Source: an uncultured Candidatus Saccharibacteria bacterium (lineage in GTDB: Bacteria > Patescibacteriota > Minisyncoccia > Phycocordibacterales > Phycocordibacteraceae). Taken from it: a stretch of DNA of 64,000 bases. The stretch lies in assembly GCA_964469405.1 (NCBI GenBank), contig CAYXYP010000004.1, positions 7,717-71,716 on the forward strand, given 5' to 3'. The position numbers were made by a program, and so were the translations under genes. Below, one piece after another: positions 3,242 to 22,436 of the stretch (positions are counted from its first letter, which is position 1; each line of letters starts with the position of its first letter). The notes below the pieces were generated by a model. It was not told the DNA's origin and did no database searches. It saw only the letters and a list, made by a program, of their open reading frames with translations.

Positions 3242-4549
3242 CTATTGCGTTTTCAGTTGAAGTTTTTTGTATAGATACGCACGCACTTTGTACCACCAGT
3301 CGGGGTTAATCGGTTTAAGGTGCACATCCTGTCTAACGATAGTGGTTGTTGCGTTTTCAGGCATGTGAAGCGTTACAGGATCATAGCCGTCTGCCTGCAC
3401 CGTTACTTCTTTATATTGTCTCGGTACGAATATTTGGTAGGTTCCATCCGACACAGTCGCATAATTGGTACCATTCACATTCACCCTCACTCCGCCCATG
3501 CTCTCGCCGAGAGAGTCATAGATTACTCCTTGTAGGTTGAATGCTTTGAAATAATTTTGCACGGTGAAATACGCCGCACGCGGCGTGCCGTCGTCGTTTA
3601 GAAGTGCTGTCGATCCTCCGCTGAGGGTCCAGTAATTCACGACAGGAATATGTGCGCGCTCCAGATACATTGCTTTGAAAAGAGAGTCAATATAATTTGC
3701 TTGTTCGGTTTGCGTCATCCATCCGTTCAAGTCGGGGATCGGTGCGCCAAATTCACCGAGTCCCACATTGGCTTTCAATTGCTCGGGGATGGCTTTGATA
3801 TCGCCTGCAAATTGTTCCGGCGTGTGCACGTAATGATCGATAAGAATTGTCCCGCCAAAAGCTCGAACAGTTGCTGGAGTAATAATTTGTCGAGCAATAT
3901 CGGCGTTCATAGAGGGGTATACGGCGACATGTTTGTCTTGTAGCGCAAATTCGTTGTCGGCAATTGTTTTTTCATCTCTAAGAAATGCATTGTACCCAGC
4001 TACATCACCCGTCTGGCGTGGATCACCTGGTCCGCCATTTTCGCACTCTGGACAAGGGCTAAAAACGTCTCCATTCTGAAAGAGTTCGGTATTATCATCT
4101 AAAAAGATTACTAGTAACTGCGTATGTGCAGTACGGTCAACTTTGGGATAATTAAACCACCCCTCCCATCCCGAGAAATTACCTCTGAACCACACTGAGA
4201 GGTGGTGTGATCGAGCGGATGCGACCCATAGTCTTAGGACGGGAAGAAACTCAGTGTCATAGGGGGTAGCAATCGCTACGTGCGTGGCACCCGCATCTGC
4301 GATACGGGCCATTTGCTTGTCTACCATTGGTTTGAATGCATTTGGATTATTGAGCATTTGTCTCGACATGTCGCGCGAGGATTTCATCGTGTCGATGGAC
4401 TGCACGCTAAAAAGATTTCCGGTAGTGGTTGGGGCGAAATAATATAAAGTGTTTCCGTGATAGGACAGGAGGAACATATATAATGCGAAAACGATTACCG
4501 AGGAAGATACGGCAAGTGTGATGAATGTGCGGAATAAAAATTTGCGCAT
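3242..4549 (-). CDS. membrane-anchored/secreted protein, possible glycoside-hydrolase-like TIM-barrel domain plus C-terminal beta-sandwich; last gene of the glycan operon
   Basis: It has an N-terminal TM helix (LAVSSSVIVFALYMFLL) and a 435-aa extracytoplasmic body. It sits at the 3' end of the minus-strand glycosyltransferase operon. The hydrolase assignment is by weak resemblance only. Confidence 0.4.
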   Translation of the reverse strand: MRKFLFRTFITLAVSSSVIVFALYMFLLSYHGNTLYYFAPTTTGNLFSVQSIDTMKSSRDMSRQMLNNPNAFKPMVDKQMARIADAGATHVAIATPYDTEFLPVLRLWVASARSHHLSVWFRGNFSGWEGWFNYPKVDRTAHTQLLVIFLDDNTELFQNGDVFSPCPECENGGPGDPRQTGDVAGYNAFLRDEKTIADNEFALQDKHVAVYPSMNADIARQIITPATVRAFGGTILIDHYVHTPEQFAGDIKAIPEQLKANVGLGEFGAPIPDLNGWMTQTEQANYIDSLFKAMYLERAHIPVVNYWTLSGGSTALLNDDGTPRAAYFTVQNYFKAFNLQGVIYDSLGESMGGVRVNVNGTNYATVSDGTYQIFVPRQYKEVTVQADGYDPVTLHMPENATTTIVRQDVHLKPINPDWWYKVRAYLYKKLQLKTQ

Positions 4550-4552
4550 TGT

Positions 4553-6235
4553 CTAATTCGATGCGGGTACATCATTCCTTTCGAATATAAGGACTTCATT
4601 TGAAGTATATGCTTTATTGAAATATTTATATAGTCGCGCATTGATTTTTGGGTTATCGTTTATGCTCGTCCATACGGTGTCGTTTTTCTGCATGACTATC
4701 CAGCGCGCGTATTTCTCGGGTGTGATGAGCGATTCTTCCCAGTATGGCTTGTTACCGATGTAGATAATGTCCTTCATTTTGATGGGCGAACGAATGATGC
4801 TGATTGTTCGCGCAAAATCATCTGTTAATACCATGCCGCGATCGTAGTGAGATTCAAGCCAGAGTTGTGCATCAGGTATTTTTGCTGTTGCAGATGATAG
4901 GCCTGCAATACCATCTTGCAAGGCAAGCACCGGGGTGAATCCGATGAAGAAGAAAATGCACTGCAACGCGAGCAATCCCCCGATGAGTGTACGACCAAAA
5001 GTCCCACTACGAGAAAACAGATATCCTATGAAGAGCGCAATAACGGGCACCATCATAGCGCCGTAGCGCACATTGAAAAGTGTCCATTCAAAAGTAATCG
5101 GCGTGATGCCTGGTAGGAATATGACCGACTGGCCTAGGAATAAGGTGAGGACATTAAAAAATAATGGGACGAGAAGTACCAATAATATGAGCCATCGGTA
5201 GCGCATTTTTCTACTGAATCCAAACATAAATAGCCCCACAAGTGCGATGCACGCTAGGAGTGTTCCAACGCTCTGCATACTCGTGACCGTGTAATAAAGC
5301 AGCGCTACAAGGATATTGTGGTATGCGGGCAGCTCGCCTCTAACGAGCCAACTATTTTGTTGCGAGCTGGCTGAGAATTGACTGTGAGTGAAATAGAGTG
5401 GATCGCCGAGAATGAGAGCTCCCCATGAGAGCCAGAGGAAAATGCCAAAGAACGCTAATGTTATGAACAATATTTCGCGCCCCTCGAGTCGGTGCCATAG
5501 TTCCAAGAGCGTGCGCTTGCTCTTATGTATGAAGAGAGGCACTCGCTTACTCTGCAATCGAAACCAGGTGAGATTAAATCTCAAAGGAAAATAGTAGAGA
5601 AAGAGCACTCCTGCTTCCATCATCACGAGCGCCCAGCCGTCGTAGCGTGAGAGGGAAGCGCAGAATCCAAATCCTGCCGCTGCGATAAGCATGAGCAGTT
5701 TCGTATCATCGAGGAGAAACCGTATGAAGAAATAGCTTGAGAGAATGAAGAAGACGACCAGTGGGAGCTCGGTCATCGGTGTTGATTGTAGATAGAGGAT
5801 GTTGGGATTCGACATGAACACTATCGCTGCAAAAAAGGCTGCGCTCTTATTTCTGGTGAGAAGGTGAACGAGTTTGTATATATAAAGACTCGAAATAACA
5901 AAAGCAATGCCAGATATGATTGATCCCGCGAGTCCAGTACGCCAAAGGAAATCAAAGTATACGAATGGTATGAGCAATACGTGCGGCAAGGGCAACCAAA
6001 TACCGCCAAGCTGGGCAAAGCCAGGGGTGAGACTGTCTACGACGCGCTTGGCGATGTTGAGGTGCGACTCTGCATCCCCGTAGGCAGCGATGTATCCGTG
6101 AGTAAACGAATATGCCGTCGCGAGTATCGCGACGAATACGGCGAGTATAACGACCCACCACTCGGGAGTGAGCCATATACTCGGACGAAGTATCCATTCA
6201 AAATATTTCTTTCTGATGACAAAGGTGCTATTCAT
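4553..6235 (-). CDS. GT-C superfamily membrane glycosyltransferase (ArnT/PMT-like, polyprenyl-phosphate-sugar dependent)
   Basis: The 560-aa ORF has about 11 TM helices followed by a soluble C-terminal domain. The architecture is typical of GT39/GT83-like enzymes. It overlaps the upstream gene by 8 nt. Confidence 0.6.
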   Translation of the reverse strand: MNSTFVIRKKYFEWILRPSIWLTPEWWVVILAVFVAILATAYSFTHGYIAAYGDAESHLNIAKRVVDSLTPGFAQLGGIWLPLPHVLLIPFVYFDFLWRTGLAGSIISGIAFVISSLYIYKLVHLLTRNKSAAFFAAIVFMSNPNILYLQSTPMTELPLVVFFILSSYFFIRFLLDDTKLLMLIAAAGFGFCASLSRYDGWALVMMEAGVLFLYYFPLRFNLTWFRLQSKRVPLFIHKSKRTLLELWHRLEGREILFITLAFFGIFLWLSWGALILGDPLYFTHSQFSASSQQNSWLVRGELPAYHNILVALLYYTVTSMQSVGTLLACIALVGLFMFGFSRKMRYRWLILLVLLVPLFFNVLTLFLGQSVIFLPGITPITFEWTLFNVRYGAMMVPVIALFIGYLFSRSGTFGRTLIGGLLALQCIFFFIGFTPVLALQDGIAGLSSATAKIPDAQLWLESHYDRGMVLTDDFARTISIIRSPIKMKDIIYIGNKPYWEESLITPEKYARWIVMQKNDTVWTSINDNPKINARLYKYFNKAYTSNEVLIFERNDVPASN

Positions 6236-9200
6236 GGCGACGAATGTATGACAAGAGGAGTACGATTGCTGCGATAACTGCTATCACCACATATATGATG
6301 AGGAAATATTCCATCAAGGTGAGATGGATATACATATACGTCTTGTACACAAAGCTGCCACTTATATTGTCTTGCAGGAGTGGAATATCTTTCAAATAAT
6401 TGTATGTCTTTATTGGAAGTAATATTGCCTCAGATTTTTTTGGAATAGCATTTGATGTTAATGCTCCAAGAAGTGCTATGGCTGATGAGAAGAGGAACAG
6501 TGCGAATGCGGCGATTTTTTTTGGACCAAGAAATCGCCCATAGGAAAGTGCTATACCCACAAAAAGCGCGAGCCATGGCATTGCGGGGATGAGGTATCGC
6601 GGACCATACGCTGACCCTCCCCACGGATCACCCCATGCGCAGTACAGAAATATATTCGTCGCAATGAGAGCAATTGGTACGATATATATAGTACGATAGG
6701 TCTTCTTCCTGCGGAGAACATACATGATGCCAAGGAGCGAAAAAATAAATATCGGCGAGAAAAAGAATAGACCCCGCTCGTCAGAAAATAAGAGGACATA
6801 AAAACTGTTTGGTATGGATTTCTCATGGAAAAATCCAACAGCAGTTTTATCTTTTATTGGGACAGTGCTTGTGGCTGTTGCCGAAGTTGTAGTCGAGGAC
6901 GCCTTCGCAATTGCTGGCGTACTTGTCGCAGTGACAACTTTGTATCCTTTTAACTCTCCTGCAAGATGGCTCCATCCGCCGTAGTACGTGGCATTGTGCC
7001 AGAAATGTAGGCTGGTAACGAAAGCGAATACCACAAATGTCGCAATCGCACTCCATTGTATCGATATCGCAATACCCTCACGAATTTTTTTGAACGAGAA
7101 TGTCGAGACCGCGAGATAGATCATGACCGGTAGCATAAGTACGGCATTTGGGTAGTCGACGAAGATTGCAAGCGCATACGCGAGCCACACATACGCCGCA
7201 TAGAGGAATCTATATCGAGCGTCGCTTTGTGAGAAGCGCCATGCTGCATAAAATGCGGTGACGATAAAACATGCCGTAAAAGCGTTTTGATAGAGAGTGA
7301 TGGCATAGCTCCATGAGGTTGATCCAAATGCGTAGACAAGGACGGCGAATAATGCAGCCCATCGCGGTAATGCGAAGATACGTAGCCCGATGAGATATAT
7401 GAAAACGAGCGTAACGATGCTTATGAGGGATTCTGCAGAAAAGGTAGCAACTTGTCCGAGTCCATATTGCGCACCAAAAAGATAGAAGGGAAGAGTAAAA
7501 TACGAAACACCCGGGGCGAAATAGCTGTCTAATTTTCCATCAGACGACACGCCAACATCAGGATAGGCGATATCAGCCCATGTTTTCGAGAGATTATAGA
7601 CTCCATTCTCAGCCATGTTTGCGACTTGGGTATAGCGGCCACGCTCAGGGGACAATTCAAAAGCGTTTGTTGGTTGGTCTAAATTATTCTTGAATTGATC
7701 TTCGGTTGGATTTCCTGGTGCGCCACGCAACGTCAGTCCGTACATGACGAGACCAAGCATGACGATTGCTATGATGATGGCCGTATCTTTCTTTATAGTT
7801 ATTTTGCTCAGCCAGCTACTTTTTTTGGGAGTTTCTTTCCGCGGCGAGTAATACACTTCTGGTACTAAGGGAATATTCCCATCGGGAAACATCATTTTGG
7901 TCTGACTTGTGTATTCTTTGATCATCCCGAGTTTCATCTCCGGCTCTTCCTCGAAACGAAATACTTCAGTCGCGAGAGGATTGTCATCTTTCGAACCTAG
8001 AACGTTCTTCATATTGTAAGGGAAATCCTTCCACAGAATTACATTTTCGAAATTTTTGAGGCATACATCGCGGACGATCACGTGATCAATGTGTGATTTC
8101 AGAGCGAGCGGGCAGAAAATGACGAATTGTTTCTCATTCGCAATGAGCGCCCTTAATTCTTCCCCGAGGGAACGCATAAGATCTGTGTCGTGGGATGAAA
8201 TTGCTCCGCGGGCGATGTGTAATTGGTGTATCGGATACAAGTGCAAAAATTCCGGAAGAATACGGGAGAGTAGTTGGCGGAACTTACTCGGAGACGTTAT
8301 TTTTCTCCATGAAGCATCGATATATCCAAGATGGTGTGGAGTAATCCCGATACGTGAGTATGCTTTGCGGTCCTCTTCTTTTCGATCAATAAGGAGTTGA
8401 TTAGTATCCGTATACCCACACCGGTACAAGAATCGTAGGACGGAAAGCGTGTATGGTGGCGTCGACGCAGCGGTAAAAACGCTTATAACTTCGACTTGCG
8501 TATGCTTCGACAGGTGCGTAATTAAACCACCCGCCGATAGAGCAGCATCATCCAAGTGTGGAGAAATAAAATAGCACGGGATTTTCCCCGTAATTATTTT
8601 CTGCAAAAAATGAGTGTCGCCCATACTCGCCCGTATTTTTTTAGAGCTTTCTGCCATCTCCCACAATGAAGTAAACTTGTCGGTTTTGTGCAAGCGAACA
8701 TATAACAATATCAGAATAAAATTTATGGAAAAAATAGGGTGCGTGAAAAATTCTTTTACCATTTCCCTGAGTATGAGTCCGGGTGGAATAGCATATGCTT
8801 TTCTGGCCTCATCGCCAAATATATCAATCACAGCCTCTTTGCCTGCAGCAAAACGAGAACTCTGTTTTATATGGTCGCGGAGATTTGTTGGGCAACGAAA
8901 TATCGCTCGAGGATATTTTACGGAAACAAAATGCATTTTGTTTCCCATACAAAACATATACGACATAGCATCATACGGAGTATTGTCTGGGTACTGAATC
9001 GTTGCATATAATTTCTTTGAGAATGCCTGAGCAGGACCGAAACAAGTGTAAAGATTGTTCCCACTTCCTATCGATAAAAATAATTTCTGTTTCAATTCAT
9101 GATTCCAGACAAGAACCTTTTCAGTAAATGTTTTTGGGTTTGAAGGAAGAAGTGCCGCGCTCGTTAGTCCGACGGAGGAGTCATTAATAATTGGGCGTAT

Positions 9201-9533
9201 CAGTTCCTCTACAAAAAACTCATTTTCAGGCAAAATATCCGCATCGAGCATTACCATGATGTCGACTGTGGCATGTCGCAATAGCATATTTTTAGCTCGA
9301 ATGGCTCCGCCTCTTGTCTCAGAGCGGATAAGTTTTACTTTTTCTCCTGCGAACGAACGAACGATAGCGTCTGTCTCATCCGTACTGGCGTCGGATACGA
9401 CCACTATTTCAACTAGGTCTGCAGTATCGATCTTCTGACGAAGGAGTTCAGTCAGAAGCACCCCGATATTTTCGGCTTCATTATATGCAGCTATGGTAAT
9501 AGTGAGTGTAGGTTTCATATTTTTGGCATACAA
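6228..9533 (-). CDS. tri-domain fusion: GT2 glycosyltransferase + LmbE/PIG-L family N-deacetylase + multi-TM GT-C-like glycosyltransferase
   Basis: The N-terminus reads TITIAAYNEAENIG...VVVSDASTDETD...LDAD, a GT-A/GT2 DxD fold. The middle section has ISPHLDDAALSAGGLI, the PIG-L/LmbE HxDD zinc-deacetylase signature. The C-terminal ~550 aa carries about 13 TM helices of PMT/ArnT-like type. Confidence 0.7.
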   Translation of the reverse strand: MYAKNMKPTLTITIAAYNEAENIGVLLTELLRQKIDTADLVEIVVVSDASTDETDAIVRSFAGEKVKLIRSETRGGAIRAKNMLLRHATVDIMVMLDADILPENEFFVEELIRPIINDSSVGLTSAALLPSNPKTFTEKVLVWNHELKQKLFLSIGSGNNLYTCFGPAQAFSKKLYATIQYPDNTPYDAMSYMFCMGNKMHFVSVKYPRAIFRCPTNLRDHIKQSSRFAAGKEAVIDIFGDEARKAYAIPPGLILREMVKEFFTHPIFSINFILILLYVRLHKTDKFTSLWEMAESSKKIRASMGDTHFLQKIITGKIPCYFISPHLDDAALSAGGLITHLSKHTQVEVISVFTAASTPPYTLSVLRFLYRCGYTDTNQLLIDRKEEDRKAYSRIGITPHHLGYIDASWRKITSPSKFRQLLSRILPEFLHLYPIHQLHIARGAISSHDTDLMRSLGEELRALIANEKQFVIFCPLALKSHIDHVIVRDVCLKNFENVILWKDFPYNMKNVLGSKDDNPLATEVFRFEEEPEMKLGMIKEYTSQTKMMFPDGNIPLVPEVYYSPRKETPKKSSWLSKITIKKDTAIIIAIVMLGLVMYGLTLRGAPGNPTEDQFKNNLDQPTNAFELSPERGRYTQVANMAENGVYNLSKTWADIAYPDVGVSSDGKLDSYFAPGVSYFTLPFYLFGAQYGLGQVATFSAESLISIVTLVFIYLIGLRIFALPRWAALFAVLVYAFGSTSWSYAITLYQNAFTACFIVTAFYAAWRFSQSDARYRFLYAAYVWLAYALAIFVDYPNAVLMLPVMIYLAVSTFSFKKIREGIAISIQWSAIATFVVFAFVTSLHFWHNATYYGGWSHLAGELKGYKVVTATSTPAIAKASSTTTSATATSTVPIKDKTAVGFFHEKSIPNSFYVLLFSDERGLFFFSPIFIFSLLGIMYVLRRKKTYRTIYIVPIALIATNIFLYCAWGDPWGGSAYGPRYLIPAMPWLALFVGIALSYGRFLGPKKIAAFALFLFSSAIALLGALTSNAIPKKSEAILLPIKTYNYLKDIPLLQDNISGSFVYKTYMYIHLTLMEYFLIIYVVIAVIAAIVLLLSYIRRHE

Positions 9534-10717
9534 TCTCTATATACGGTATCCATTTTCCGGGCGACATCTTTCCATGATTGTCCTTTGCCAAAAATGGCGT
9601 TCGCCTCTTTTATTTTCTGTACGCTTGTTGCATTGCTCGGATCAAGAAGCCACAAAACTTTTTCGGCAACTTTTTTATCATCGTGTACCGGAAGACAAAA
9701 ACCATTCACGCCGTCTTTGATAAGTCCAGGGAGGCCATACACATCGGATACAACACAGGGAATCCCTTGGCTCATTCCTTCGCGTACGACATTGCAACCA
9801 CTCTCCCATAATGCCATGTGTACCATGGCAACGGCATGTCGCATGAGATAATATTTATCAATTCCGCGGACGACACCAGTGAATACAATACGCTTTCCAA
9901 GCCGAAGCTCTGCTATAAGGTTTTTCAGTTTTTGTTCATATGTCGCATCTTGCAATTGACCAATGACCACAAACTTCATGTTCTCCGGTAGATGCGCGAG
10001 TGCTCGAATCGTTGTTTCGATATTTTTGATCGGGTACACTCGTGCGACTTGAATGATATATCTGCCGTACGTTGCAACCGCTTTTTTAACATCTGCGCTC
10101 GCTAAAGCGTCAATATCTCCATACGCTTCATCTTCGAGCCCGTTGTCTATCAAGTGAACCTTTTCGGGCCTAATATATTTCACTTCTTCCGTTCGTTCCC
10201 ACTCCGATACTGCGCGCACGCCATCAACGGTGGCGTTTATAAGCCATGCACCAAGTGTGTGAGTGTATATCTTTTTTACGAAACGACTTACGGGAGGGAA
10301 CATTGACCATTCGGGACTAAAACCACCATGCGGGGTGAGTATAAGCGCAAATTCTTTCTTCCCAATTATTTTAAATAAAAGCGCATAAAAGAGATACCGC
10401 ACAAAGAATATGTCAAAATTATGAAGTGCGATGACATCAGTCTCTCCCCAATGTAGTTCAGGAGAAAATCCGAATACGCCACTCTCGTATCTTTTTACGC
10501 GGAGGCCATTCATGATCTCTTCTGCTACGAGTATATTTTTCTCAGTGTATGTATCTCTGAGTGTATGTATGGTTACATCCCAGCCGAGCGTATTCTGCAA
10601 GGCGACATACGTCTGCATAATGTTATTCTCGATACCTCCTGCAACGGGGTAGAAATACTTCGTGATAACGTCCACGTGTTTTTTTGGCACATTTACGAGA
10701 GTAGTCATGGCTGTCAT
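9515..10717 (-). CDS. GT4 (GT-B, group 1) glycosyltransferase
   Basis: The C-terminal EGMSQGIPCVVSDVYGLPGLIKDGVNGF matches the EX7E-type GT4 donor-binding motif. The ORF is 400 aa. It overlaps both neighbours by 19 nt and 4 nt. Confidence 0.8.
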   Translation of the reverse strand: MTAMTTLVNVPKKHVDVITKYFYPVAGGIENNIMQTYVALQNTLGWDVTIHTLRDTYTEKNILVAEEIMNGLRVKRYESGVFGFSPELHWGETDVIALHNFDIFFVRYLFYALLFKIIGKKEFALILTPHGGFSPEWSMFPPVSRFVKKIYTHTLGAWLINATVDGVRAVSEWERTEEVKYIRPEKVHLIDNGLEDEAYGDIDALASADVKKAVATYGRYIIQVARVYPIKNIETTIRALAHLPENMKFVVIGQLQDATYEQKLKNLIAELRLGKRIVFTGVVRGIDKYYLMRHAVAMVHMALWESGCNVVREGMSQGIPCVVSDVYGLPGLIKDGVNGFCLPVHDDKKVAEKVLWLLDPSNATSVQKIKEANAIFGKGQSWKDVARKMDTVYRDCMPKI

Positions 10718-12450
10718 TTTATTATTACAGCAGTTGAAATCACCGCATATCGCGGATCATTAAACAAAAGATCCTCATCGGCGAGCTCTTCTTTTGCGAG
10801 CCCAACCCAAAACGCTTGTCCAGAAAGGACATTCCCATACGAAGAAACAAGTATATGTTCCGGTGAGACACATTTCCCAAAAAGATATTTGAGCGAGGTG
10901 GGAGTATATCTCCAATAGCATCGTTCCGGATTTTGCATTACTCCCATAGACGAGACGGTGACGAGAAGCACACCTCCTGGTTTCAATATGCGAACAGCTT
11001 CCCGCGCCGCAGACTCGTGATCGTCAATGACCCCGAGCGTGTGCGTAAGAATGATGCAGTCGTAGGTATTTTCCGGAATATGACTCATATTTCTCAAATC
11101 ACCATACAAATTCGCCCTCTTATTTTTTATATCTACATCAAGCACATCACTTTTTGTCACTTTGGCACCACCGAAACGGGCGGTGTAGTCGTTAGTACAT
11201 ATTTCAAGACAGTAACCACGTATATATGCCGCATTAGTTTCTAAAAATAACTCGATGTAGTGACGATCAATCGGAGTGCCTCGGTCAAAACCAAATTTTT
11301 TGCTTATTGGGAAAAGGGAGTATTTTGATTTTGGTCGAAAAAAACGCATGAAAAGAGTACGAATTCTCCCAAGAAGAGAGACGAACATGTCTATAATGGT
11401 CGACCTTGGATAGACCGATTGGCTTCGCAAGGCATCTCCCGATAAATCATGAGATATATCACTCCACTCATATACAACAGCATTAAAGCATCGAAAGTTT
11501 AATTTGAGGCGTTCTTCACTCTCTGTATCGTGGAGTAATTGGACGGCGGATATTGCAAAAAGCGCACGAAATATTTTTGCAGTTTCTTGCGATTTGCCAT
11601 ATAGCGATGCGACACCATTTAGAACGACCTTTCGAGATTCATCGTTATCCCACTCCCAATGCAATGAGTTGGTAAATATTTGGAGCAAACTTGTAAAAGC
11701 ATTATCGCCAAAATCAATGATAACAACCCCTTCTTTGTTTACGAGGACATTCTCAAAATGAAAATCTCGATGAACTAACCCTTCATGCCAATGTGAGGCA
11801 AGAGGTGGAACTGCTTGCAGAACCATCGGTATTGTTCGTATGAGAGTCGGTATTTCTCGAGGATATCGGATAGCGGCGTATACAAGACTGACACCATAAG
11901 CAAATAGCGTGTCGGATAGTGTACGTCTGGGAATCTGGCTTTTTTCAGAGGCGTTGAATTGGTCACCAATATATTTCCAAAAATCAATTGCGAGATTAAA
12001 GGTTTCGTATTTTTTTGAAAATGGAGTGACATCTTTTAAATGTATACAATTTTCTATATACTCAAAGACCGCCAGAATATGCGTAGGAGATATTTCCTTT
12101 TCTAAAAGGCGAGGGATGCATATGTGCCGGTATTTCTCTTCAAGTGAGGACCCAATGCGATCCAGCACCCCATGGAGAAGCATGTACAACCGAATCTCGT
12201 TCATGAGTTGGTAGTATTCGTATGTTTGAACTGGCCCCCTCCATATTTTGATAAGAACTTTGTGTCCCTGATTATTTTCGTATACACCAATACCGCGCGG
12301 AGAACTTACGAGAACGGTGTGCAATCGAAAGCCATTGTATTCCGCAGGAAGTGATGTGTCAGAGTCAATTCGCTTGAACAAGCTTACTACGCTAGTTTTT
12401 AATACTAGAGATATGTGCCAGAAAATGTTTGTTTGCTTTATAATAGTCAT
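10714..12450 (-). CDS. fusion of a protein-kinase-like/aminoglycoside-phosphotransferase-like kinase domain and a class I SAM-dependent methyltransferase
   Basis: HRDFHFENVLVNKEGVVIIDFGD gives an HRD catalytic loop plus a DFG motif. The C-terminal DCIILTHTLGVIDD...ILKPGGVLLVTVSS is a Methyltransf_11-type fold. Confidence 0.65.
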   Translation of the reverse strand: MTIIKQTNIFWHISLVLKTSVVSLFKRIDSDTSLPAEYNGFRLHTVLVSSPRGIGVYENNQGHKVLIKIWRGPVQTYEYYQLMNEIRLYMLLHGVLDRIGSSLEEKYRHICIPRLLEKEISPTHILAVFEYIENCIHLKDVTPFSKKYETFNLAIDFWKYIGDQFNASEKSQIPRRTLSDTLFAYGVSLVYAAIRYPREIPTLIRTIPMVLQAVPPLASHWHEGLVHRDFHFENVLVNKEGVVIIDFGDNAFTSLLQIFTNSLHWEWDNDESRKVVLNGVASLYGKSQETAKIFRALFAISAVQLLHDTESEERLKLNFRCFNAVVYEWSDISHDLSGDALRSQSVYPRSTIIDMFVSLLGRIRTLFMRFFRPKSKYSLFPISKKFGFDRGTPIDRHYIELFLETNAAYIRGYCLEICTNDYTARFGGAKVTKSDVLDVDIKNKRANLYGDLRNMSHIPENTYDCIILTHTLGVIDDHESAAREAVRILKPGGVLLVTVSSMGVMQNPERCYWRYTPTSLKYLFGKCVSPEHILVSSYGNVLSGQAFWVGLAKEELADEDLLFNDPRYAVISTAVIIK

Positions 12451-12453
12451 ATT

Positions 12454-15400
12454 TTATGTTCGATTTACCAAAGAAGCTTCGTGGTGGGATATAAATTCCC
12501 GACTGGAAATTGCCTCAATAAATTTTTGACTGCTCTTGCTCCACTCAAAATTCTGTGACCATACAATCGCGTATCTTGAGAGAATCTTCCGGAGTGTCCC
12601 ATCAACGAGCACTAGAATTATCTTTTCTGCGAGAGCTCCAGTATCACCATACGGGACCAGGAGTCCCGTCTCGCCATCGCGTACAGAATCGCGAAGGCCG
12701 GAGACATCTGACGCAATGACGGGCGTACCGCAGGCATTCGCTTCAATCGTAGTTATTCCCCAGCCCTCAATCATAGATGGAGTGACAAAAACCCAGGATG
12801 TTCGCAAAATATCACGCTTCTCTTCCTCGGATACCTTTCCACGAAAAGAAACTGAATTTCCGAGGTCGAGTTTCTGCGTCAATCTCTTCAAATTATTTTC
12901 TTCCTCACCATCCCCAGCAATAATAAGCTCTGCATCGGGAACACGAGCCAGAACTTCTTTGAATGCCTCGATGAGCACATGGACAGACTTGTGTTCTTTC
13001 AGTCTTCCAACATAGGACACTGTTGGCACGAATGCTTTCTTTCCAGGAGTTAGGAAATTTGTATCAATGCCCGGATTTACCACCTGAATATCTTTGGTCG
13101 TTATGTTGAGCGTCTCCATAGCCTGTTTTGAAGAATCTGACACCGTAATGAAGTTGCAGTTGCGATACACAAGCGGCATAAAATCTCTTTCGAGGAAGCA
13201 AGCAAAACTGGAAAGTGGCCACACGAGCGATTTGCGGAATACGTCTTGATGAATGTGGTGTACCAGGCAATACACGGGTTCTGTAGCATACAGCGGAGTA
13301 AAGAAGGGGATACCATTTTCACTATCTACGATAACGTCGAATGTCCCTCTGAAATGAAATAGATAATAGAGCGAGGCGATGACATAGGTCGCATAGAATC
13401 CACCACGGCGTATGATGCGGACACCATCAGTCTCTCCGTTTGGGGGTAAATGACCGTCATTACTTGTGAACAGGGTCACGGAGTGACCATCCTTTACCCA
13501 CCGTGATGCAAGAGCTTGCACGTATGTCTCGGCGCCGCCGGCAAACACACTTTTGGTATCGCGCCAATTGAAGACAAGAATATTTTTTTTGCCCGGAATA
13601 TGAGGGCGTGCGGGAGGCAATGGTTTATAGATAATAAGGATGTCATAGAGGTTACGATAGGCGTAGAGAAGCTGGTTGTAGAAAATATGTGAAGCCGCAA
13701 TAATTAGGAAATATATGATATTAAACGCTACTGCCGTCTGCACAAATACCGCTACGGAAGAATGGTAGAACACCATACTTGTAAGCATGGAGAGAGATAA
13801 CACTAAAGATATGGCGGGGAAAAAATATCGTTCCCGCGCAAGCTGGTAGAGAACGACGGTTGTTGCAAGCGTGAATAATGTCATGGCGATAGAGTAGGGA
13901 ATGAGATACGGGACAATCATCAGCGCCGATGCGCCAAGAAGAAGCGGTGCAAGAAACCACCCGAACAAAGAGAGGCCGAGCCCTGCCGAAATGCTGAGGA
14001 ATGCCGTACCGACAAAAATCTTCCCAAATTCTTTCTCCGGATCTCTGCCTTTTCCCATCGCACGACTCACCATTGACACGATAAATACATTGAGAAGAGA
14101 ACCGAAAAAATAAATCATTTTCCCGATGGTGGAGAGGAGAGCATAGACGCCGGCGTCATAGGGACTTAAATAATGTTTCGCCAGAATTACGTCGACGCTC
14201 AGAACCATCGCAATCGAAAATCCCTTCATGAGTGATGCTGCATAAAAATCAAGCGAAAATTTCGTTTCCGTCTGGGCCGTTCTTTGGGCAGCTGGAATTT
14301 TTCGGTACACGAGGGCGGCGCAAGCGGTTGAACCAGCCCAACCAAGAAAGATAGAAATAGGTATGGCAAGTGAAGAGAATTCGTATGCACTCATGGAGAC
14401 GAGAATCATGGCTGCGGCGAGTCTCGAACTGGATTCAAAAAGGGCTAGAAACGCAAGCATGCCGAAGCTCCACATGCCTTGCAAGTACCCGGCGTTATAC
14501 GCATTAAGCGATCCGAAGAAAATCGCTGGAGCGAAGGCTGCTATTACCACGTATCCTGACATGTGGAAGAAATCGGAGATAAACGGGACGGAAGCAAACC
14601 ACACGATGCTCCCAATCATGCTCGGAATAAAAATGTGTAGCCATGTGTGACGGAAAAAGAGACTTCCTTTTCCGGGAGCGATTCCTTCAAGATACGAAAC
14701 GGTGTGGTTGAGTGTGGTGCCGACACCGTTAACAAAAAGATTGAGCAGATACACAAACGTGCTTACGAGCGTGATAGTGCCGAAGTCTTCGAAATTAAGA
14801 TGTCTGCCGAGATACGCATTGAATGCAAAGTTGATGATGTTTGCGACTACCGAAGACATCACCAGGAGTCCTGCGCTTGAAGTGATGAATTTTCGTGTCT
14901 TTACGAACCATGTTTCTTTTTCGGTATTGTCACTCAGAATATGGATCAGCTCTGGTTCGTTGTCGGGTACAGCATTTGCCGCCATATCGATGGATGCCGG
15001 TAACGCGGGATTCTTTACGGGTATGAGTGTCAAGACGGTCCGTGGAGGCTGTTTCGCCATGACGGCTTTCATATCGAAAGCGATTTGCGGTACTGGGACG
15101 CGCATCGTCCATGGTATTTGCGGGATAATTTTCACCGGGGCGAGGTGAAGCCCATGAACTGTCTTCGCCCAGTAGTGTGGCTTCACAATTATTTCGTACA
15201 GCGCTTGCCATGCGGCGAAACTCATACCGAGCCAATAGAACGGGATGAGGAAAACGTATTTGATGAGTCCGTCGTATTCGCGCTTCACACAACCGATCAT
15301 GTAGTAGTAGAGATAGAGGAAGTTTCCAAATACAAGCGAAAAGACTCCGATATAGAGTATCGGTCCCGGGAAGAAGGCCTCTATAAAGAGGCCGATCTTT

Positions 15401-16662
15401 GCGCGGAAAAGAAAGTAACAAATCGTCGTCACCCACATGATGGGATTGATGAAAAGCGAAAGTATCTTTCCGCCAACGATGAGCTGGAAAAGAAAAAAAT
15501 CTTTTCCTTTCCCCGCTGTGAAATACTCCTGCGGATTACGCATGTGCACGAAATAGGTCTGGATGTAGCCTTTGATCCACCTGCTGCGCTGGTTGTACCA
15601 ATTCAGGACGTCCGAGTTGGCCTCCTCGTGTGTGGTCGAATCGACGATTGCCGTTTTGTAACCGCGCTTGGCGAGGCGCATACCGAGGTCACAATCCTCG
15701 GTGACGTTAAACGCATCCCAGCCCCCGAGCTCACGGAGCGTGTCTCTGCGGAAATGGTTGGAAGTTCCGCCAAGCGGAATAGGCGCCCCGATTGATTGAA
15801 AGCCGGGGAGAACCAAGTCGAACCAGAGTGAATATTCCGCGCTAAAGAGTCTCGTGAGAATGTTCTGTTGCGGATTATAGAAATTGAGTTTGGCTTGGAT
15901 GCAGGCCACGCTCGCATCTACTTTTTTGAATGCGAGAACCGCCTTCTTAAGTTGGTCGACTTCGGGGACATCCTCGGCGTCGTATATAACGACATACTCG
16001 CCGCTCACATAATTAAGGCCGTAGTTCATCGCCTTCGGCTTGGTCTTCGGCTTTGAGTGCGGCACGACCACGATGTGGAAGTGCTCGGGCAGGGAGGACG
16101 TGCTTATTTTCTGTATGGTTTCCGTATCGTTCTCCTCGAGAAGAAAAAGGACCTGAAGTTTCTCGTGCGGGTAATCAAGTTTCTGCATCGCTTCGACGAA
16201 CTGAGGTACCACCTGCCATTCTTTATAGAGCGGACAGAAGATCGTGTAGGTCGGGCAGTTCTCGTCGCGGAGTCCCGCTATCTCTGATGCGCTGATGCGT
16301 ATTTCGGGGAGCGCTTTGTAGCTTTGGAAAATAATGAACGCACTAAATAGAAGATCGAAAAAATAGAGCACGGTCATCACGCCGAACAGCGCGATGGCGG
16401 TCATCTGCCAATTGAGAACAAATGCAAATGCAAGGAGTCCGATAGCTGTTCCTAAAAATATTTTCTGATGTCTAAGTAAATTGAAAAACGCTGATTCTGT
16501 CACATGCAAATCTGCATGATGAATGAATTCGGCACCCTTGTAATGGAAGCCCGTCTGCATCGTGTTAGACATAATGGGCGACATGTGTGGATCATGCTCC
16601 GGCCCGAAGATGAAACCACGCACTTTCCGGGACAGGTTCGTGTACGCATCAACGTATCTCAT
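12454..16662 (-). CDS. 1402-aa tri-module protein: processive GT2 synthase (cellulose/chitin/PNAG-synthase-like, QxxRW) + about 12-TM Wzx/MOP-flippase-like module + C-terminal GT4 glycosyltransferase
   Basis: The N-terminal domain has DAEDVPE, TEDCDLGMRL and QRSRWIKG (D, D, D, QxxRW) flanked by TM helices. The central ~450 aa is highly hydrophobic and polysaccharide-biosynthesis/flippase-like. The C-terminus reads EGWGITTIEANACGTPVIASDVSGLRDSVRDGETGLLV, a GT4 signature. Confidence 0.75.
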   Translation of the reverse strand: MRYVDAYTNLSRKVRGFIFGPEHDPHMSPIMSNTMQTGFHYKGAEFIHHADLHVTESAFFNLLRHQKIFLGTAIGLLAFAFVLNWQMTAIALFGVMTVLYFFDLLFSAFIIFQSYKALPEIRISASEIAGLRDENCPTYTIFCPLYKEWQVVPQFVEAMQKLDYPHEKLQVLFLLEENDTETIQKISTSSLPEHFHIVVVPHSKPKTKPKAMNYGLNYVSGEYVVIYDAEDVPEVDQLKKAVLAFKKVDASVACIQAKLNFYNPQQNILTRLFSAEYSLWFDLVLPGFQSIGAPIPLGGTSNHFRRDTLRELGGWDAFNVTEDCDLGMRLAKRGYKTAIVDSTTHEEANSDVLNWYNQRSRWIKGYIQTYFVHMRNPQEYFTAGKGKDFFLFQLIVGGKILSLFINPIMWVTTICYFLFRAKIGLFIEAFFPGPILYIGVFSLVFGNFLYLYYYMIGCVKREYDGLIKYVFLIPFYWLGMSFAAWQALYEIIVKPHYWAKTVHGLHLAPVKIIPQIPWTMRVPVPQIAFDMKAVMAKQPPRTVLTLIPVKNPALPASIDMAANAVPDNEPELIHILSDNTEKETWFVKTRKFITSSAGLLVMSSVVANIINFAFNAYLGRHLNFEDFGTITLVSTFVYLLNLFVNGVGTTLNHTVSYLEGIAPGKGSLFFRHTWLHIFIPSMIGSIVWFASVPFISDFFHMSGYVVIAAFAPAIFFGSLNAYNAGYLQGMWSFGMLAFLALFESSSRLAAAMILVSMSAYEFSSLAIPISIFLGWAGSTACAALVYRKIPAAQRTAQTETKFSLDFYAASLMKGFSIAMVLSVDVILAKHYLSPYDAGVYALLSTIGKMIYFFGSLLNVFIVSMVSRAMGKGRDPEKEFGKIFVGTAFLSISAGLGLSLFGWFLAPLLLGASALMIVPYLIPYSIAMTLFTLATTVVLYQLARERYFFPAISLVLSLSMLTSMVFYHSSVAVFVQTAVAFNIIYFLIIAASHIFYNQLLYAYRNLYDILIIYKPLPPARPHIPGKKNILVFNWRDTKSVFAGGAETYVQALASRWVKDGHSVTLFTSNDGHLPPNGETDGVRIIRRGGFYATYVIASLYYLFHFRGTFDVIVDSENGIPFFTPLYATEPVYCLVHHIHQDVFRKSLVWPLSSFACFLERDFMPLVYRNCNFITVSDSSKQAMETLNITTKDIQVVNPGIDTNFLTPGKKAFVPTVSYVGRLKEHKSVHVLIEAFKEVLARVPDAELIIAGDGEEENNLKRLTQKLDLGNSVSFRGKVSEEEKRDILRTSWVFVTPSMIEGWGITTIEANACGTPVIASDVSGLRDSVRDGETGLLVPYGDTGALAEKIILVLVDGTLRKILSRYAIVWSQNFEWSKSSQKFIEAISSREFISHHEASLVNRT

Positions 16663-17395
16663 TTTGTGCGGTAGGAAGAGCGCTATAGCGTCCCAGAATG
16701 CGGTTCCACGATATGTGTGCGAGCTCGCCGAGCGTTTGGAAATAAGAAACAGCGGTAACTTTGGATCCGGCGGGATTGTCCCATACGACGGGAAGTTCCT
16801 TTATCTTGAAGTCATTTTTGCGAGCGATGACTAAAACCTCGATATCAAATCCAAAACGCTCGATAGTCTGTCGCGGGAAAATCGCGTCGGCCGCCTTTGC
16901 GGAAAATAGTTTGAATCCGCGCTGAGTGTCTTCAATTCCCGGCACCGCTAAGAGCTGTACGAGCATGTTTGCACCTGAACCGAGTATTCTGCGGTGCCAG
17001 CCATTATGCTCGGATACGTCGGTGGTATCAGTGATGTGTATAGAACCGATAGCAACGTCGAACCCATTTGAGAGAGAGCGCATGAACATATCGAGGTGTG
17101 AGATATCTACTGAGTTGTCAGCGTCCATAAACAGTCGATAGTCGCCCGTCGCGGCGAGCATTCCGCGCTTGACGGAGAAACCCTTTCCGCTATTTTTTTC
17201 ATTTATTAGAACCTGCAGGTTTTTTATTCTTGACGCATAGCGTCCGGCCACAAAGGCGGTGCCGTCAGTCGAGCCATCGTCGACCACGATCACTTCGACG
17301 GGCATGTCATTATGGGCGAAATATCGTTCGATGCTCTCGAGTGTATTCCCGATACGCGTCGCTTCGTTGTAAGCCGGTATGACTATGGAAAGCAT
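16649..17395 (-). CDS. GT2 polyprenyl-phosphate glycosyltransferase (Dpm1/GtrB-like)
   Basis: MLSIVIPAYNEATRIGNTL...VIVVDDGSTDGT...DADNS is present. I place the start at the ATG at the complement of 17393-17395, just after the GtrA stop. The ORF track extends it to 17455. Confidence 0.75.
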   Translation of the reverse strand: MLSIVIPAYNEATRIGNTLESIERYFAHNDMPVEVIVVDDGSTDGTAFVAGRYASRIKNLQVLINEKNSGKGFSVKRGMLAATGDYRLFMDADNSVDISHLDMFMRSLSNGFDVAIGSIHITDTTDVSEHNGWHRRILGSGANMLVQLLAVPGIEDTQRGFKLFSAKAADAIFPRQTIERFGFDIEVLVIARKNDFKIKELPVVWDNPAGSKVTAVSYFQTLGELAHISWNRILGRYSALPTAQNEIR

Positions 17396-17399
17396 ATTT

Positions 17400-17813
17400 T
17401 TATCCATGAGATTTTTTGAACACCAGGAATCGATAGCCGAGGAAGTTCCATCCAAGCACGACGAAGGTGCCCATCAATGCTCCAATGTTTGCCGCAAGTT
17501 GCGGGGAAGCCTGCTGCACGAAGAGGGTGAAGACGGCAAACGAAATTGATACGTTTATCCAGAAGCCTACCGCGGATATGATGAAGAAAAGTAGTGGCTC
17601 TTTCACGTTTGTCGGCGTGTCGTGCCTAAAGACCCACCATTTATTCAATATGTAGCTATTGGCGACAGCCGCGAGGAAAGAGATGCTCTTGAATACGACG
17701 AAAAGTTCACCATGGACACCGGTACCAAAAAAGTATATTAAAATGTTGAGCACCATTAAATCGAGTGCTGTGTTAAGCACTCCGACACAGAAGAATTTAA
17801 AAAATGTATACAT
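17400..17813 (-). CDS. GtrA-family small membrane protein (polyprenyl-P-sugar translocation partner of GtrB-like GT2)
   Basis: The 137-aa ORF has 4 TM helices. FFKFFCVGVLNTALDLMVLNILIYF is GtrA-like. It is the first gene of the operon. Confidence 0.7.
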   Translation of the reverse strand: MYTFFKFFCVGVLNTALDLMVLNILIYFFGTGVHGELFVVFKSISFLAAVANSYILNKWWVFRHDTPTNVKEPLLFFIISAVGFWINVSISFAVFTLFVQQASPQLAANIGALMGTFVVLGWNFLGYRFLVFKKSHG

Positions 17814-21497: not shown

Positions 21498-22436
21498 ATG
21501 GAATATTTGCCTGAATTTAAAAAGAACTTTGCAACCGCGTATCTCGCGGAGGAGTATGAACGTCTCGATAAAGAGGCTGCTGAGGCACTTGGAGCCGCAG
21601 GAGGGGATGCCGAGCTTATGCGAATGGCGAAGGAAGACGAGTCGCGCGTCCGCGCGCGACAGGCGGGCATTCTCACCGAAATAGAGCAAATCCTTGCGAA
21701 AGAAAAAGAAGAAGTCGCTCGACCGAGTTCGGTCGTGATGGAGCTACGCGCTGCTGCGGGTGGGGACGAAGCGACCATCTTCGCCACCGATCTAAAAGAA
21801 ATGTATCAAAAATATGCTGAACGTCGTGGATGGAAGACGCGCGTTGTCGATGATCTCACTATTGAGATCATAGGTGCTGATGCGTACGATGCTCTGCGCT
21901 TCGAAACTGGCGTACATCGAGTCCAGAGGGTGCCACTCACTGAGAAGTCGGGGCGTATTCATACCTCCACCGCCTCAATAGCTGTATTGCCTATCCGCTT
22001 AAAATCGAAGGTAGATATCAATCCAGCCGATATCCAGATGGAATTTTCGAGAAGTGGCGGAGCAGGAGGACAGAATGTGAACAAGGTCGAGACGGCTGTT
22101 CGGCTCGTCCATATACCTACCGGAATTGATGTACGCTCTTCTTCCGAGAGAAGTCAGTTGGCGAATCGCGAAAAGGCGATGCAAATTCTATCCGCGAAGC
22201 TTGAACAATTGCATGAAGAACAGGAAGCGAAGAAACATGCGGCAGAGCGTAAAGAACAGATAGGTACGGGCGATCGTTCGGAAAAGATTCGCACGTATAA
22301 CTACCTGCAAGATCGTGTTACCGACCATCGGCTGAAGGAATCCTGGCACAATCTGCCGAAGATCCTCGCGGGAGGCATAGATGACATTATCGATGCATTA
22401 CACGCGGCAACCACCTCGCCAACCCATTCCGGCTAA
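21498..22436 (+). CDS. prfA: peptide chain release factor 1
   Basis: It has the GGQ motif [11 protein letters not shown]. The codon-recognition tripeptide is PLT ([14 protein letters not shown]), which is the RF1 P-x-T type. The ORF is 312 aa. Confidence 0.85.

Follow-up and report, generated by a model that had tools for sequence, protein, structure and literature searches.

The side chain of the Lactococcus cell wall polysaccharide is started on a C55 polyprenyl phosphate (C55-P) by the family 2 glycosyltransferase (GT2) WpsA/B, extended by further glycosyltransferases, flipped by the Wzx-type WpsG and transferred by the GT-C enzyme WpsJ to a separately made backbone, in a gene cluster with conserved and variable regions (PMC9574508). 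A Wzx-type flippase is found as well in the GacI/J/K/L system, in which a glycosyltransferase of the GT-A type works with a small membrane partner (PMC8035078). We analysed here a stretch of 64,000 nucleotides from an uncultured Candidatus Saccharibacteria bacterium (assembly GCA_964469405.1, contig CAYXYP010000004.1, positions 7,717 to 71,716), hereafter the window, in which eight consecutive open reading frames (ORFs) of the minus strand, at 3242-17813, form a real operon for the predicted assembly of a cell-surface sugar polymer. The dual-chain pathway of Lactococcus appears by analogy to be its closest characterised counterpart. Every module of the operon belongs to a known family, and the overall logic has precedents in the synthase-dependent systems, in three- and four-component glycosylation and in the lactococcal dual-chain pathway. 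What we have not found described is the fusion of a processive-type synthase with a flippase of the MOP (multidrug/oligosaccharidyl-lipid/polysaccharide) superfamily and a family 4 glycosyltransferase (GT4), the constant pairing of this fusion with two GT-C enzymes and a clan GH-A glycosidase, and the Patescibacteria distribution of the whole. Full-text searches found no description of the locus and gave only generic statements on glycosyltransferases of the Candidate Phyla Radiation (CPR), in line with a preliminary description of this DNA, which had not recognised a well-characterised pathway in it. We propose, with slightly better than even confidence, that the locus builds a glycopolymer of the cell envelope along two coupled routes, one for a backbone and one for a side chain grafted onto it. 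The genes, in the order of transcription and with the domains of the two largest proteins, are the following.

17400-17813, minus strand: GtrA-family small membrane protein, 137 aa (PF04138 GtrA_DPMS_TM, 66.3 bits, cut-off 26.1)
16649-17407, minus strand: soluble Dpm1-like GT2, called GT2a, 252 aa from ATG 17407 (Glycos_transf_2, 103.7 bits)
12454-16662, minus strand: giant protein of three domains, 1402 aa (Pfam, AlphaFold and Foldseek; more than 120 full-length homologues)
15133-16485, minus strand: synthase domain of the giant protein (Glyco_trans_2_3, 96 bits; CelA, 95 bits)
13633-14910, minus strand: predicted MOP-superfamily (Wzx/MurJ/MATE-like) flippase domain of the giant protein (fold match, Pfam matches of homologues)
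12478-13590, minus strand: GT4 domain of the giant protein, a retaining GT-B enzyme (Glycos_transf_1, 151 bits; Glyco_transf_4, 55 bits)
10714-12450, minus strand: kinase-methyltransferase fusion, 578 aa (APH, 29.7 bits, cut-off 23.2; Methyltransf_11, 35.6 bits, cut-off 21.2)
9515-10717, minus strand: stand-alone GT4, 400 aa (Glycos_transf_1, 98 bits)
6228-9518, minus strand: GT2-LmbE-GT-C triple fusion, 1096 aa from ATG 9518 (Glycos_transf_2, 82.7 bits; PIG-L, 38.6 bits)
8754-9518, minus strand: GT2 of the triple fusion, called GT2b (Glycos_transf_2, 82.7 bits)
7884-8588, minus strand: LmbE/PIG-L de-N-acetylase domain of the triple fusion (PIG-L, 38.6 bits, cut-off 28.2)
6231-7823, minus strand: putative GT-C membrane domain of the triple fusion, called GTC1 (Pfam matches of orthologues, hhalign)
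4553-6235, minus strand: putative second GT-C glycosyltransferase, called GTC2, 560 aa (PMT_2, 30.9 bits, cut-off 26.1)
3242-4549, minus strand: membrane-anchored extracytoplasmic glycosidase-like protein, 435 aa (AlphaFold and fold search; CarboxypepD_reg, 5e-6)

The eight ORFs lie exactly where the preliminary description had placed them, and their tight packing was borne out. When translation is taken to begin at the likeliest ATG codons, at 17407 in the small GT2 and at 9518 in the triple fusion, neighbouring genes overlap by 4-14 nt or are separated by 3 nt. The overlaps are of 8 nt between the GtrA gene and GT2a (56 nt if the mechanical ORF start, TTG 17455, is taken), 14 nt between GT2a and the giant protein, 4 nt between the kinase-methyltransferase and the stand-alone GT4, 4 nt in the form ATGA between the latter and the triple fusion (19 nt with TTG 9533), and 8 nt between the triple fusion and GTC2; the gaps of 3 nt precede the kinase-methyltransferase and the glycosidase-like gene. 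This spacing is consistent with a single transcript and translational coupling. Promoter and terminator scans gave counts equal to the shuffled expectation and are thus uninformative on the operon boundaries. Searches with profile hidden Markov models (HMMs) showed that GtrA_DPMS_TM, Glycos_transf_2 (three times), Glyco_trans_2_3, Glycos_transf_1/4 (twice), APH, Methyltransf_11, PIG-L and PMT_2 all pass the Pfam gathering cut-offs. All the earlier domain calls hold, those of the flippase and the hydrolase of the window through AlphaFold models and fold searches, and so does the general reading made of them, in which lipid-linked sugar synthesis, a QxxRW synthase, translocation, deacetylation, GT-C transfer on the outer face and a hydrolase are combined.

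In the giant protein, a membrane GT2 resembling BcsA and hyaluronan synthase (HAS) occupies approximately residues 60-510, a Wzx-like MOP flippase residues 585-1010 and a GT4 residues 1025-1395. Structure prediction, which the preliminary description had left to be done, was run on residues 1-1020 with 56 homologues; the AlphaFold model (pLDDT 88.1), searched with Foldseek, matched BcsA and hyaluronan synthases in its first half and WzxE, MurJ and MATE proteins in its second half. The first half was matched to BcsA with 6e-11 (E 1e-15 by sequence), to hyaluronan synthases and to PcManGT with a TMt of 0.71; the alignment with BcsA and HAS extends over about 440-540 columns and takes in the transmembrane helices, and PcManGT, which has no known polymer secretion, matches as well. 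It is a membrane-integrated GT2 carrying the D, DxD, TED and QxxRW motifs: DAED (15970-15981), TED (15694-15702) and QRSRW (15577-15591) are invariant across the 56 homologues, and an invariant WAKTVHG is located at 15151-15171. No Pfam match to PilZ or a related cyclic di-GMP (c-di-GMP) module was obtained in the giant protein; such a receptor module is not universal among synthases, and HAS lacks one. The flippase domain has eleven hydrophobic segments and gave no Pfam match in the window protein, even when isolated and searched at E up to 10, while many of its homologues carry PF01943 or PF01554. Its model matched the lipid III flippase WzxE with a TMt of 0.74-0.77, and MurJ and MATE were matched also. 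For the GT4 domain, the closest NCBIfam models were MshA and BshA, which are N-acetylglucosamine (GlcNAc) transferases, all far below their cut-offs.

Upstream of the giant protein, GT2a is without any transmembrane segment and found its best solved relative in the dolichol-phosphate-mannose synthase of P. furiosus (E 6e-15), with homology over its full length (residues 6-227); it is predicted from this similarity to be a polyprenyl-phosphate hexose synthase. The GtrA protein exhibits three hydrophobic segments above the threshold of 1.6 and is likely the partner and membrane anchor of the soluble GT2a, a flippase for the polyprenyl-phosphate sugar, or both. As expected for multi-component glycosylation systems, flippase-type proteins, here GtrA_DPMS_TM and the MOP fold, are encoded together with the GT2.

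The middle of the operon forms a tailoring cassette. Its G+C content (7884-12333) is 42.8%, compared with 47.1% for the conserved operon parts (3242-7823 and 12478-17813) and 47.4% for the whole window; the same pattern is seen in variable regions of the O-antigen type that are exchanged between strains. The kinase of the kinase-methyltransferase fusion (approximately 11446-12333) is similar to eukaryotic-type protein kinases (ePK) and APH, with a VLIK lysine, an HRDxxxxN loop read from the translation and DFG at 11707-11715, and is followed by a class I S-adenosylmethionine (SAM) methyltransferase (approximately 10717-11388). The stand-alone GT4 is similar over its full length to Agl16, with 190 bits against a cut-off of 575, hence no equivalog. 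In the triple fusion, the LmbE domain carries the metal motifs PHLDD (8547-8561, residues 320-324) and HIDH (8082-8093, residues 476-479) in addition to its family profile, and is related to Dbv21 and the teicoplanin deacetylases (E 3.5e-15).

The GTC1 domain gave no Pfam match when isolated, at E up to 10; among its 39 orthologues, four match PMT_2 (best 2.6e-8) and two a TMEM260-like family. It was aligned to GTC2 by hhalign with a probability of 92.8%. Invariant acidic residues are located in its first outer loop (ELSPERG, 7638-7658, and PDVG, 7551-7562), E56 and D89 in domain numbering being invariant just after the first transmembrane segment, and the domain contains also WGDPWGG (6615-6635). 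GTC2 has nine hydrophobic segments and, just after the first transmembrane segment, an invariant Y52-x-D54...H58 motif (6062-6082); 12 of 38 orthologues match PMT_2. PDB searches with profile HMMs from the orthologues of GTC1, GTC2 and the glycosidase-like protein (31-39 sequences) found nothing but the CarboxypepD_reg domain of SusC type.

The last gene encodes a protein with an N-terminal transmembrane anchor (4466-4522), a CarboxypepD_reg beta-sandwich (approximately 3317-3541) and a (beta/alpha)8 barrel of clan GH-A (approximately 3545-4417). The barrel, searched as the N-terminal 300 residues, gave no Pfam match at E up to 10; the AlphaFold model (pLDDT 77.7, pTM 0.77) displays eight alternating strand/helix units with invariant glutamates at the beta-4 and beta-7 positions, as in clan GH-A. 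The candidate acid/base residue is in PECENG (4034-4051) and the candidate nucleophile in GEFG (3746-3757), with E168, E170 and E266 invariant in 31 orthologues, and mannan-active glycoside hydrolase families predominate among the top fold matches. On the basis of this model the protein is a candidate for an operon-encoded, syntenic glycosidase acting on the product.

We found that this arrangement, contrary to the impression of uniqueness given by the preliminary description, is not peculiar to the window and represents a conserved locus type of Patescibacteria. A scan with the giant protein, made with one genome per species, showed relatives in at least 591 species-level genomes, and most of the informatively named records are Patescibacteria. 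The more than 120 full-length relatives are 43-88% identical and include named Parcubacteria, Roizman-, Doudna-, Niyogi- and Falkowbacteria, among others. Several loci (L007, L009, L011, L012, L015, L016 and many others) come from metagenome-assembled genomes entitled Gammaproteobacteria, Bdellovibrionales, Pseudomonadales, Verrucomicrobiia, Clostridia or Weeksellaceae and carry the same locus; these are probably wrong taxonomic labels and not a wider distribution.

Synteny was analysed in 85 fetched loci annotated by domain-level BLAST. In 84 related loci the order is kept: Dpm1-like GT2, synthase-flippase-GT4, variable cassette, GTC1, GTC2 and GH-A protein, the cassette being composed of genes for GT2, GT4, methyltransferase, kinase, a deacetylase of LmbE or carbohydrate esterase family 4 (CE4) type, and acetyltransferase. 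Among the 46 loci with at least 9 kb of sequence downstream, GTC2 is present in 45, GTC1 in 39, two GT-C genes in 40 and the glycosidase in 30, the last being an underestimate because this gene is the last of the locus. The same 46 loci exhibit 30 different middle cassettes, with LmbE present in only eight; the pair of methyltransferase and GT4 recurs in at least 10 related loci. GTC1 co-occurs with the 300-aa GT2 type represented by GT2b (both in 37 loci, neither in 6, 3 discordant) and with the MOP domain (both in 39, neither in 5, 2 discordant). Minimal loci (L066, L072, L074, L078 and L083) are reduced to a synthase joined to a Dpm1-like GT2, a pair of GTC2-like genes and the glycosidase, which argues that the core works without flippase, GT4 and cassette. 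GtrA orthologues were located upstream in L003, L004, L038, L060 and L066, corresponding to the 5 of 85 loci detected by BLAST. In the closest relatives the locus adjoins genes for type IV pili, encoding T2SSE, T2SSF, several N_methyl pilins and an LVIVD-repeat protein, at 1-6802 of L003, 1-8079 of L004 and 23740-24429 of L005. A role in pilin glycosylation or another tie to such pili, suggested by these three, was rejected, prepilin-like ORFs being found in only 3 of the 85 loci; neither in this window nor in most of the other loci do pilus genes flank the operon.

Fusion of domains was the feature most stressed in the preliminary description, and its three large fusions proved to be of two kinds. 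The synthase-flippase-GT4 fusion is the rule in Patescibacteria, and at least 40 of the 84 loci fuse also the Dpm1-like GT2 to its N-terminus. The kinase-methyltransferase and the GT2-LmbE-GT-C proteins are lineage-specific, their modules being separate or differently fused, as the earlier suggestion of a synteny check had allowed for, in relatives with a giant protein of 65-88% identity: in L004 (65%), GT2-GT4, PIG-L and GTC1 are encoded by one gene each and the kinase is joined to an acetyltransferase, and in L001 (88%) the methyltransferase is a protein by itself and the kinase shares a polypeptide with a GT4 and a CE4 deacetylase. Stand-alone forms of the methyltransferase (about 235 aa) and of the kinase (about 310-330 aa) occur in relatives. 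An exhaustive HMMER search with the triple fusion over 1.84 billion representatives showed no second GT2-LmbE-GT-C fusion in the top 150 matches, which were those examined. Independent fusions onto GTC1 recur, as GT2b-GTC1 (819-943 aa, 6 of the representatives examined), LmbE-kinase-GTC1 (1088-1127 aa), LmbE-X-GTC1, kinase-GTC1 and GTC1-GTC1. LmbE is found in LmbE-GT2b, LmbE-GT2b-GT4, GT4-LmbE and GT2-GT4-LmbE fusions, and kinase-GT4-CE4, kinase-acetyltransferase and GT2-GT4 fusions were observed also. In the 954-aa protein P0151, a GTC1-like membrane domain with YGAYDDPWGG is fused to a GH-A plus CarboxypepD_reg module, so that the GT-C and glycosidase steps are physically linked.

We propose that the core of the system would be formed by the BcsA/HAS-like GT2 of the giant protein, which would polymerise a beta-linked backbone from a nucleotide sugar and probably thread it through its own membrane channel, while GT2a with GtrA would make a polyprenyl-monophosphate hexose from which GTC2 would transfer single sugar residues outside the membrane. 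The GH-A enzyme, anchored in the membrane, would then trim, release or transglycosylate the chain; GH-A enzymes cleave beta-linkages, and BcsZ, PslG and PgaB process the chain in other synthase systems. As an add-on, GT2b might start a side chain on polyprenyl monophosphate, and such an initiation would explain the absence of a phosphoglycosyl transferase, no PF00953 or PF02397 initiating transferase being found in the operon, in the remaining ORFs of the window that were scanned or in five related loci with annotation; one may lie elsewhere in the genome. The two GT4 units would extend this side chain, LmbE (converting N-acetylhexosamine (HexNAc) to hexosamine), the kinase (giving a sugar phosphate) and the methyltransferase would tailor it in the cytoplasm, the Wzx-like domain of the giant protein would flip it, and GTC1 would transfer it en bloc onto the backbone. 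In this lineage, neighbouring cassette genes would have been fused to give the kinase-methyltransferase and the GT2-LmbE-GT-C proteins. A hypervariable cassette of lower G+C content between conserved flanks predicts a strain-specific surface chemistry.

Several points weigh against this proposal. The best size-normalised structural match of the synthase is PcManGT, a non-secreting mannosyltransferase of N-glycan synthesis, and since this enzyme shares the fold, processive secretion does not follow from a cellulose-synthase-like fold. By sequence GT2b is not specifically Dpm1- or GtrB-like and could be an ordinary chain-extending GT2. The GT-C fold of GTC1 and GTC2 is suggested by weak Pfam matches and a profile comparison, and the glycosidase model was built from two sequences only. 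That GT2a works with GTC2, and GT2b with GTC1, is deduced from co-occurrence and fusions and not from activity, with co-occurrence statistics that ignore phylogenetic relatedness. For product, donor, acceptor and substrates alike, the assignments are ones that we infer.

The readings that compete with two coupled routes concern the reality of the proteins and the nature of the product. That the large fusions are artefacts of assembly or frameshift merging neighbouring genes is scarcely credible. Shorter calls do exist in near-identical assemblies, as 224-aa methyltransferase-only proteins starting at residue 355 of the kinase-methyltransferase (P0160, P0162, P0164 and P0167, one such call sharing its contig with a 1098-aa triple fusion) and as pieces of the triple fusion of 117-651 aa, and the kinase-methyltransferase junction may be polymorphic or sometimes disrupted in the population. 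Against an artefact, three sequence variants of the full-length ORF of the triple fusion (1096, 1096 and 1098 aa) were recovered from 8 contigs of NCBI, Logan and ENA, among them one from a 0.1-um assembly of Hainich groundwater; the giant protein of 1402 aa is found on 8 contigs and the 578-aa protein on 5, the giant protein has hundreds of full-length homologues, analogous GTC1 fusions occur in unrelated representatives, and the reading frame runs through the domain linkers without a stop codon. The triple fusion of the window is genuine. Concerning the product, a membrane-anchored lipoglycan comparable to the mycobacterial phosphatidylinositol mannosides, lipomannan and lipoarabinomannan (PIM/LM/LAM) or to glycosylphosphatidylinositol (GPI) anchors is the alternative that we take most seriously, although we consider it doubtful. 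Here the GT4 units would glycosylate a membrane lipid at its cytoplasmic side, LmbE would de-N-acetylate a GlcNAc-lipid as PIG-L does, the MOP domain would flip it and the two GT-C enzymes would extend it outside with the polyprenyl-phosphate hexose supplied by GT2a. The combination of GT4 and LmbE is that of PIG-A/PIG-L, MshA/MshB and BshA/BshB and is reflected in the GT4-LmbE and GT2-GT4-LmbE fusions; a Dpm1-like GT2 and GT-C enzymes of PMT_2 type are present, no phosphoglycosyl transferase would be needed, and the GT4 of the giant protein weakly matches monoglucosyl-diacylglycerol synthase. Such a product leaves unexplained the invariant BcsA/HAS-like synthase and the conserved GH-A glycosidase, and it fits poorly with LmbE being optional (8 of 46 loci) and with the minimal loci lacking GT4 and flippase. 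It does not exclude a backbone with grafted side chains, since the backbone could start on a glycolipid primer.

Less probable is a protein O-glycosylation system for surface proteins, an S-layer or pilins, in which the GT-C enzymes would act as PMT- or TMEM260-like protein mannosyltransferases with GT2a as supplier of the polyprenyl-phosphate sugar while the remaining transferases would assemble the glycan, and which we regard as unlikely. The GT-C proteins match only the PMT_2, PMT and TMEM260-like families, several of the transferases resemble the archaeal Agl16, AglJ and Dol-P hexose transferase, and pilus genes adjoin the locus in L003, L004 and L005. This association is confined to 3 of the 85 loci, PMT_2 covers also ArnT-like lipid and glycan transferases, and no oligosaccharyltransferase of STT3, PglL or O-antigen-ligase type is present. 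The conserved polysaccharide-type synthase, the GH-A glycosidase and the GT-C-glycosidase fusion indicate a glycan acceptor, against a protein one; for one of the two GT-C enzymes, protein O-glycosylation is possible. A conventional O-antigen or capsule route, either Wzx/Wzy or dependent on an ATP-binding cassette (ABC) transporter with WbdD-like capping, is very improbable. It could account for the Wzx-like fold, for a kinase and a methyltransferase in one polypeptide and for the variable middle of lower G+C content, as in O-antigen loci. The Wzx/Wzy comparison made in the preliminary description found no support, as neither a Wzy-type polymerase nor an initiating phosphoglycosyl transferase was found in the window or in the five Pfam-annotated relatives; the Wzy, O-antigen ligase and Wzz families gave no match in any operon protein, and the operon and annotated relatives are devoid of Wzz and ABC exporter. 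ABC genes elsewhere in the window (33758, 46718, 48278 and 52283) are unlinked to the operon. The comparison with WbdA/WbdD fared no better: a phmmer search of the kinase-methyltransferase against all PDB chains (E up to 1) gave generic methyltransferases and kinases and no WbdD, its two domains come in the opposite order, and the chain stops at residue 578 with the methyltransferase domain, without a coiled-coil extension. It was thus rejected as a WbdD homologue. The fusion of the kinase to LmbE, GT4, acetyltransferase or GT-C in relatives is more in keeping with a kinase that tailors sugars than with a terminator of chain length.

The gene adjoining the operon at its 3' end is convergent with it.

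2413-3213, plus strand: nucleotidyltransferase with a C-terminal cupin of phosphomannose isomerase (PMI) type, 266 aa (CTP_transf_like, 6e-13; MannoseP_isomer, C-terminal, 1e-22)

It matched also RfaE domain II (1.5e-17) and the C-terminus of GMP_PMI (1.6e-20), both under their cut-offs. The preliminary description had seen in it the probable supplier of the activated sugar. The convergent gene itself was confirmed, and it possibly supplies an activated manno-configured sugar; the same position is occupied by such a gene only in L001 and L004, the closest relatives with sequence reaching there, and it is uncertain whether it belongs to the glycan system. A manno-configured sugar is weakly hinted at, none of the hints being decisive, by the GT2 resembling dolichol-phosphate-mannose synthase, the PMT-type GT-C enzymes, the mannan-active fold matches of the glycosidase and the PMI-type cupin.

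On the other side, two overlapping ORFs of the plus strand (18207-19559 and 19556-21046, 450 and 496 aa) are divergent from the operon, the first having N- and C-terminal membrane segments. They showed no Pfam or NCBIfam match and no counterpart beside the locus in 85 relatives, and are therefore not part of the system. Further along the plus strand, 22556-23521 encodes a stand-alone LPG_synthase_C protein, the counterpart of the aminoacyl-phosphatidylglycerol synthase at the C-terminus of MprF, and an EamA transporter gene comes after it; the former is another envelope-lipid modification gene near the glycan operon. Two genes for class-I peptide chain release factors with PCRF and RF-1 domains are present on the plus strand (21498-22436 and 42343-43398), the first being short (312 aa) with a truncated PCRF match. 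On the minus strand, a 131-aa protein with a eukaryote-type RRM_1 domain (E 4e-23) is encoded at 1828-2223, and a 239-aa ORF at 39367-40086 weakly matches alternative oxidase (AOX, E 1e-7), which is unexpected in Patescibacteria, usually described as being without respiration.

To our knowledge, the envelope chemistry of CPR/Patescibacteria is essentially unknown. We suggest, as a tentative extension of the two-route proposal, that the locus might make the principal, lineage-defining envelope glycopolymer of Patescibacteria, with a role comparable to that of teichoic acids in Firmicutes or of LM/LAM in Actinobacteria, by means of an undescribed synthase-flippase-GT4 megasynthase. If so, the megasynthase would join synthase-dependent secretion to the grafting of side chains by GT-C enzymes, and the hypervariable cassette would be a surface code governing attachment to host cells and susceptibility to phages; Patescibacteria live attached to other cells, which makes surface glycans obvious candidates for host recognition. 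One conserved locus in hundreds of species, with a strain-variable cassette, offers enzymes to express, a polymer to seek and a marker of surface diversity in metagenomes. The recurrent fusions (synthase-flippase-GT4, GT2-GT-C, LmbE-kinase-GT-C and GT-C-glycosidase) are 'Rosetta stones' that pair cytoplasmic and outer-face steps and could be useful for GT-C systems generally.

Compared with known systems, the kinase-methyltransferase shares with WbdD of E. coli O9a the association of an ePK-like kinase and a SAM methyltransferase in one cytoplasmic protein within a glycan locus, but differs by the absence of detectable sequence similarity, the opposite domain order and the lack of a coiled-coil ruler and of an ABC transporter partner; the fusion is, moreover, lineage-specific and possibly polymorphic. 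The PIM/LM/LAM and GPI pathways would have in common with the locus a cytoplasmic GT4, LmbE/PIG-L, flipping and GT-C extension from the polyprenyl- or dolichyl-phosphate-mannose of a Dpm1-type GT2, whereas here a processive-type synthase and a glycosidase are added and LmbE is optional across the locus family. ArnC/ArnD/ArnT, FlmF2/NaxD/FlmK of Francisella, LgmA/C/B of Bordetella and PpgS/Rv3632/Rv3779 of M. tuberculosis make a polyprenyl-phosphate N-acyl-aminosugar, deacylate it and transfer it outside. The order of this chemistry, GT2, deacylase and GT-C, is that of the three predicted activities of the triple fusion, in which the LmbE metal motifs are intact; the deacylase is here of LmbE/PIG-L type instead of the CE4-like ArnD or the YdjC-like NaxD, and the three activities are in one polypeptide. 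We know of no lipid A in a monoderm CPR cell, and an internal HexNAc within an oligosaccharide could equally be the substrate of LmbE. With the synthase-dependent systems (cellulose BcsA/B/Z, poly-N-acetylglucosamine (PNAG) PgaABCD, hyaluronan synthase and Psl/PslG), the locus shares a membrane GT2 of BcsA/HAS-like fold with D, DxD, TED and QxxRW and, as a candidate, a glycosidase in the operon, deacetylases being often present also. It departs from them by the lack of a detected PilZ/c-di-GMP module and of outer-membrane components and by its coupling to GT-C enzymes, and a synthase-MOP flippase-GT4 fusion was not found described for any characterised synthase.

The three-component systems GtrA/GtrB/GtrC, CsbB/GtcA/YfhO and GtlA/GtcA/GtlB bring together, as is predicted here, a GT2 polyprenyl-phosphate-sugar synthase, a GtrA-family protein and a GT-C. 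The locus is distinct from them in that its GT2 is without a transmembrane domain of its own, that two GT-C enzymes and two candidate GT2 donors are found within a larger synthase locus, and that in most relatives GtrA is undetected, the GT2 being fused to the synthase instead. The resemblance to the cwps locus of Lactococcus lactis, which encodes a rhamnan and the polysaccharide pellicle (PSP) with WpsA/B, WpsC-F, WpsG, WpsI/H and WpsJ, is one of logic only: cwps combines in one locus the genes for a conserved backbone and for a side chain that varies between strains, in conserved and variable regions, and the same is predicted here. Like cwps and GacI/J/K/L, the system would start with a GT2 on polyprenyl monophosphate, extend by cytoplasmic glycosyltransferases, flip with a Wzx-type protein and end with a GT-C outside, this last being our proposal here, and a soluble GT-A enzyme with a likely small membrane partner is present as well. 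The operon is devoid of rml genes, of an LCP (LytR-CpsA-Psr) ligase and of a Wzz-like WpsH, and its backbone would be made by a BcsA/HAS-like synthase, in contrast to the ABC-transporter-dependent rhamnan pathway of cwps. The locus is further distinguished from cwps by the union of synthase, flippase and GT4 in one polypeptide, by the conserved GH-A glycosidase and by its Patescibacteria host.

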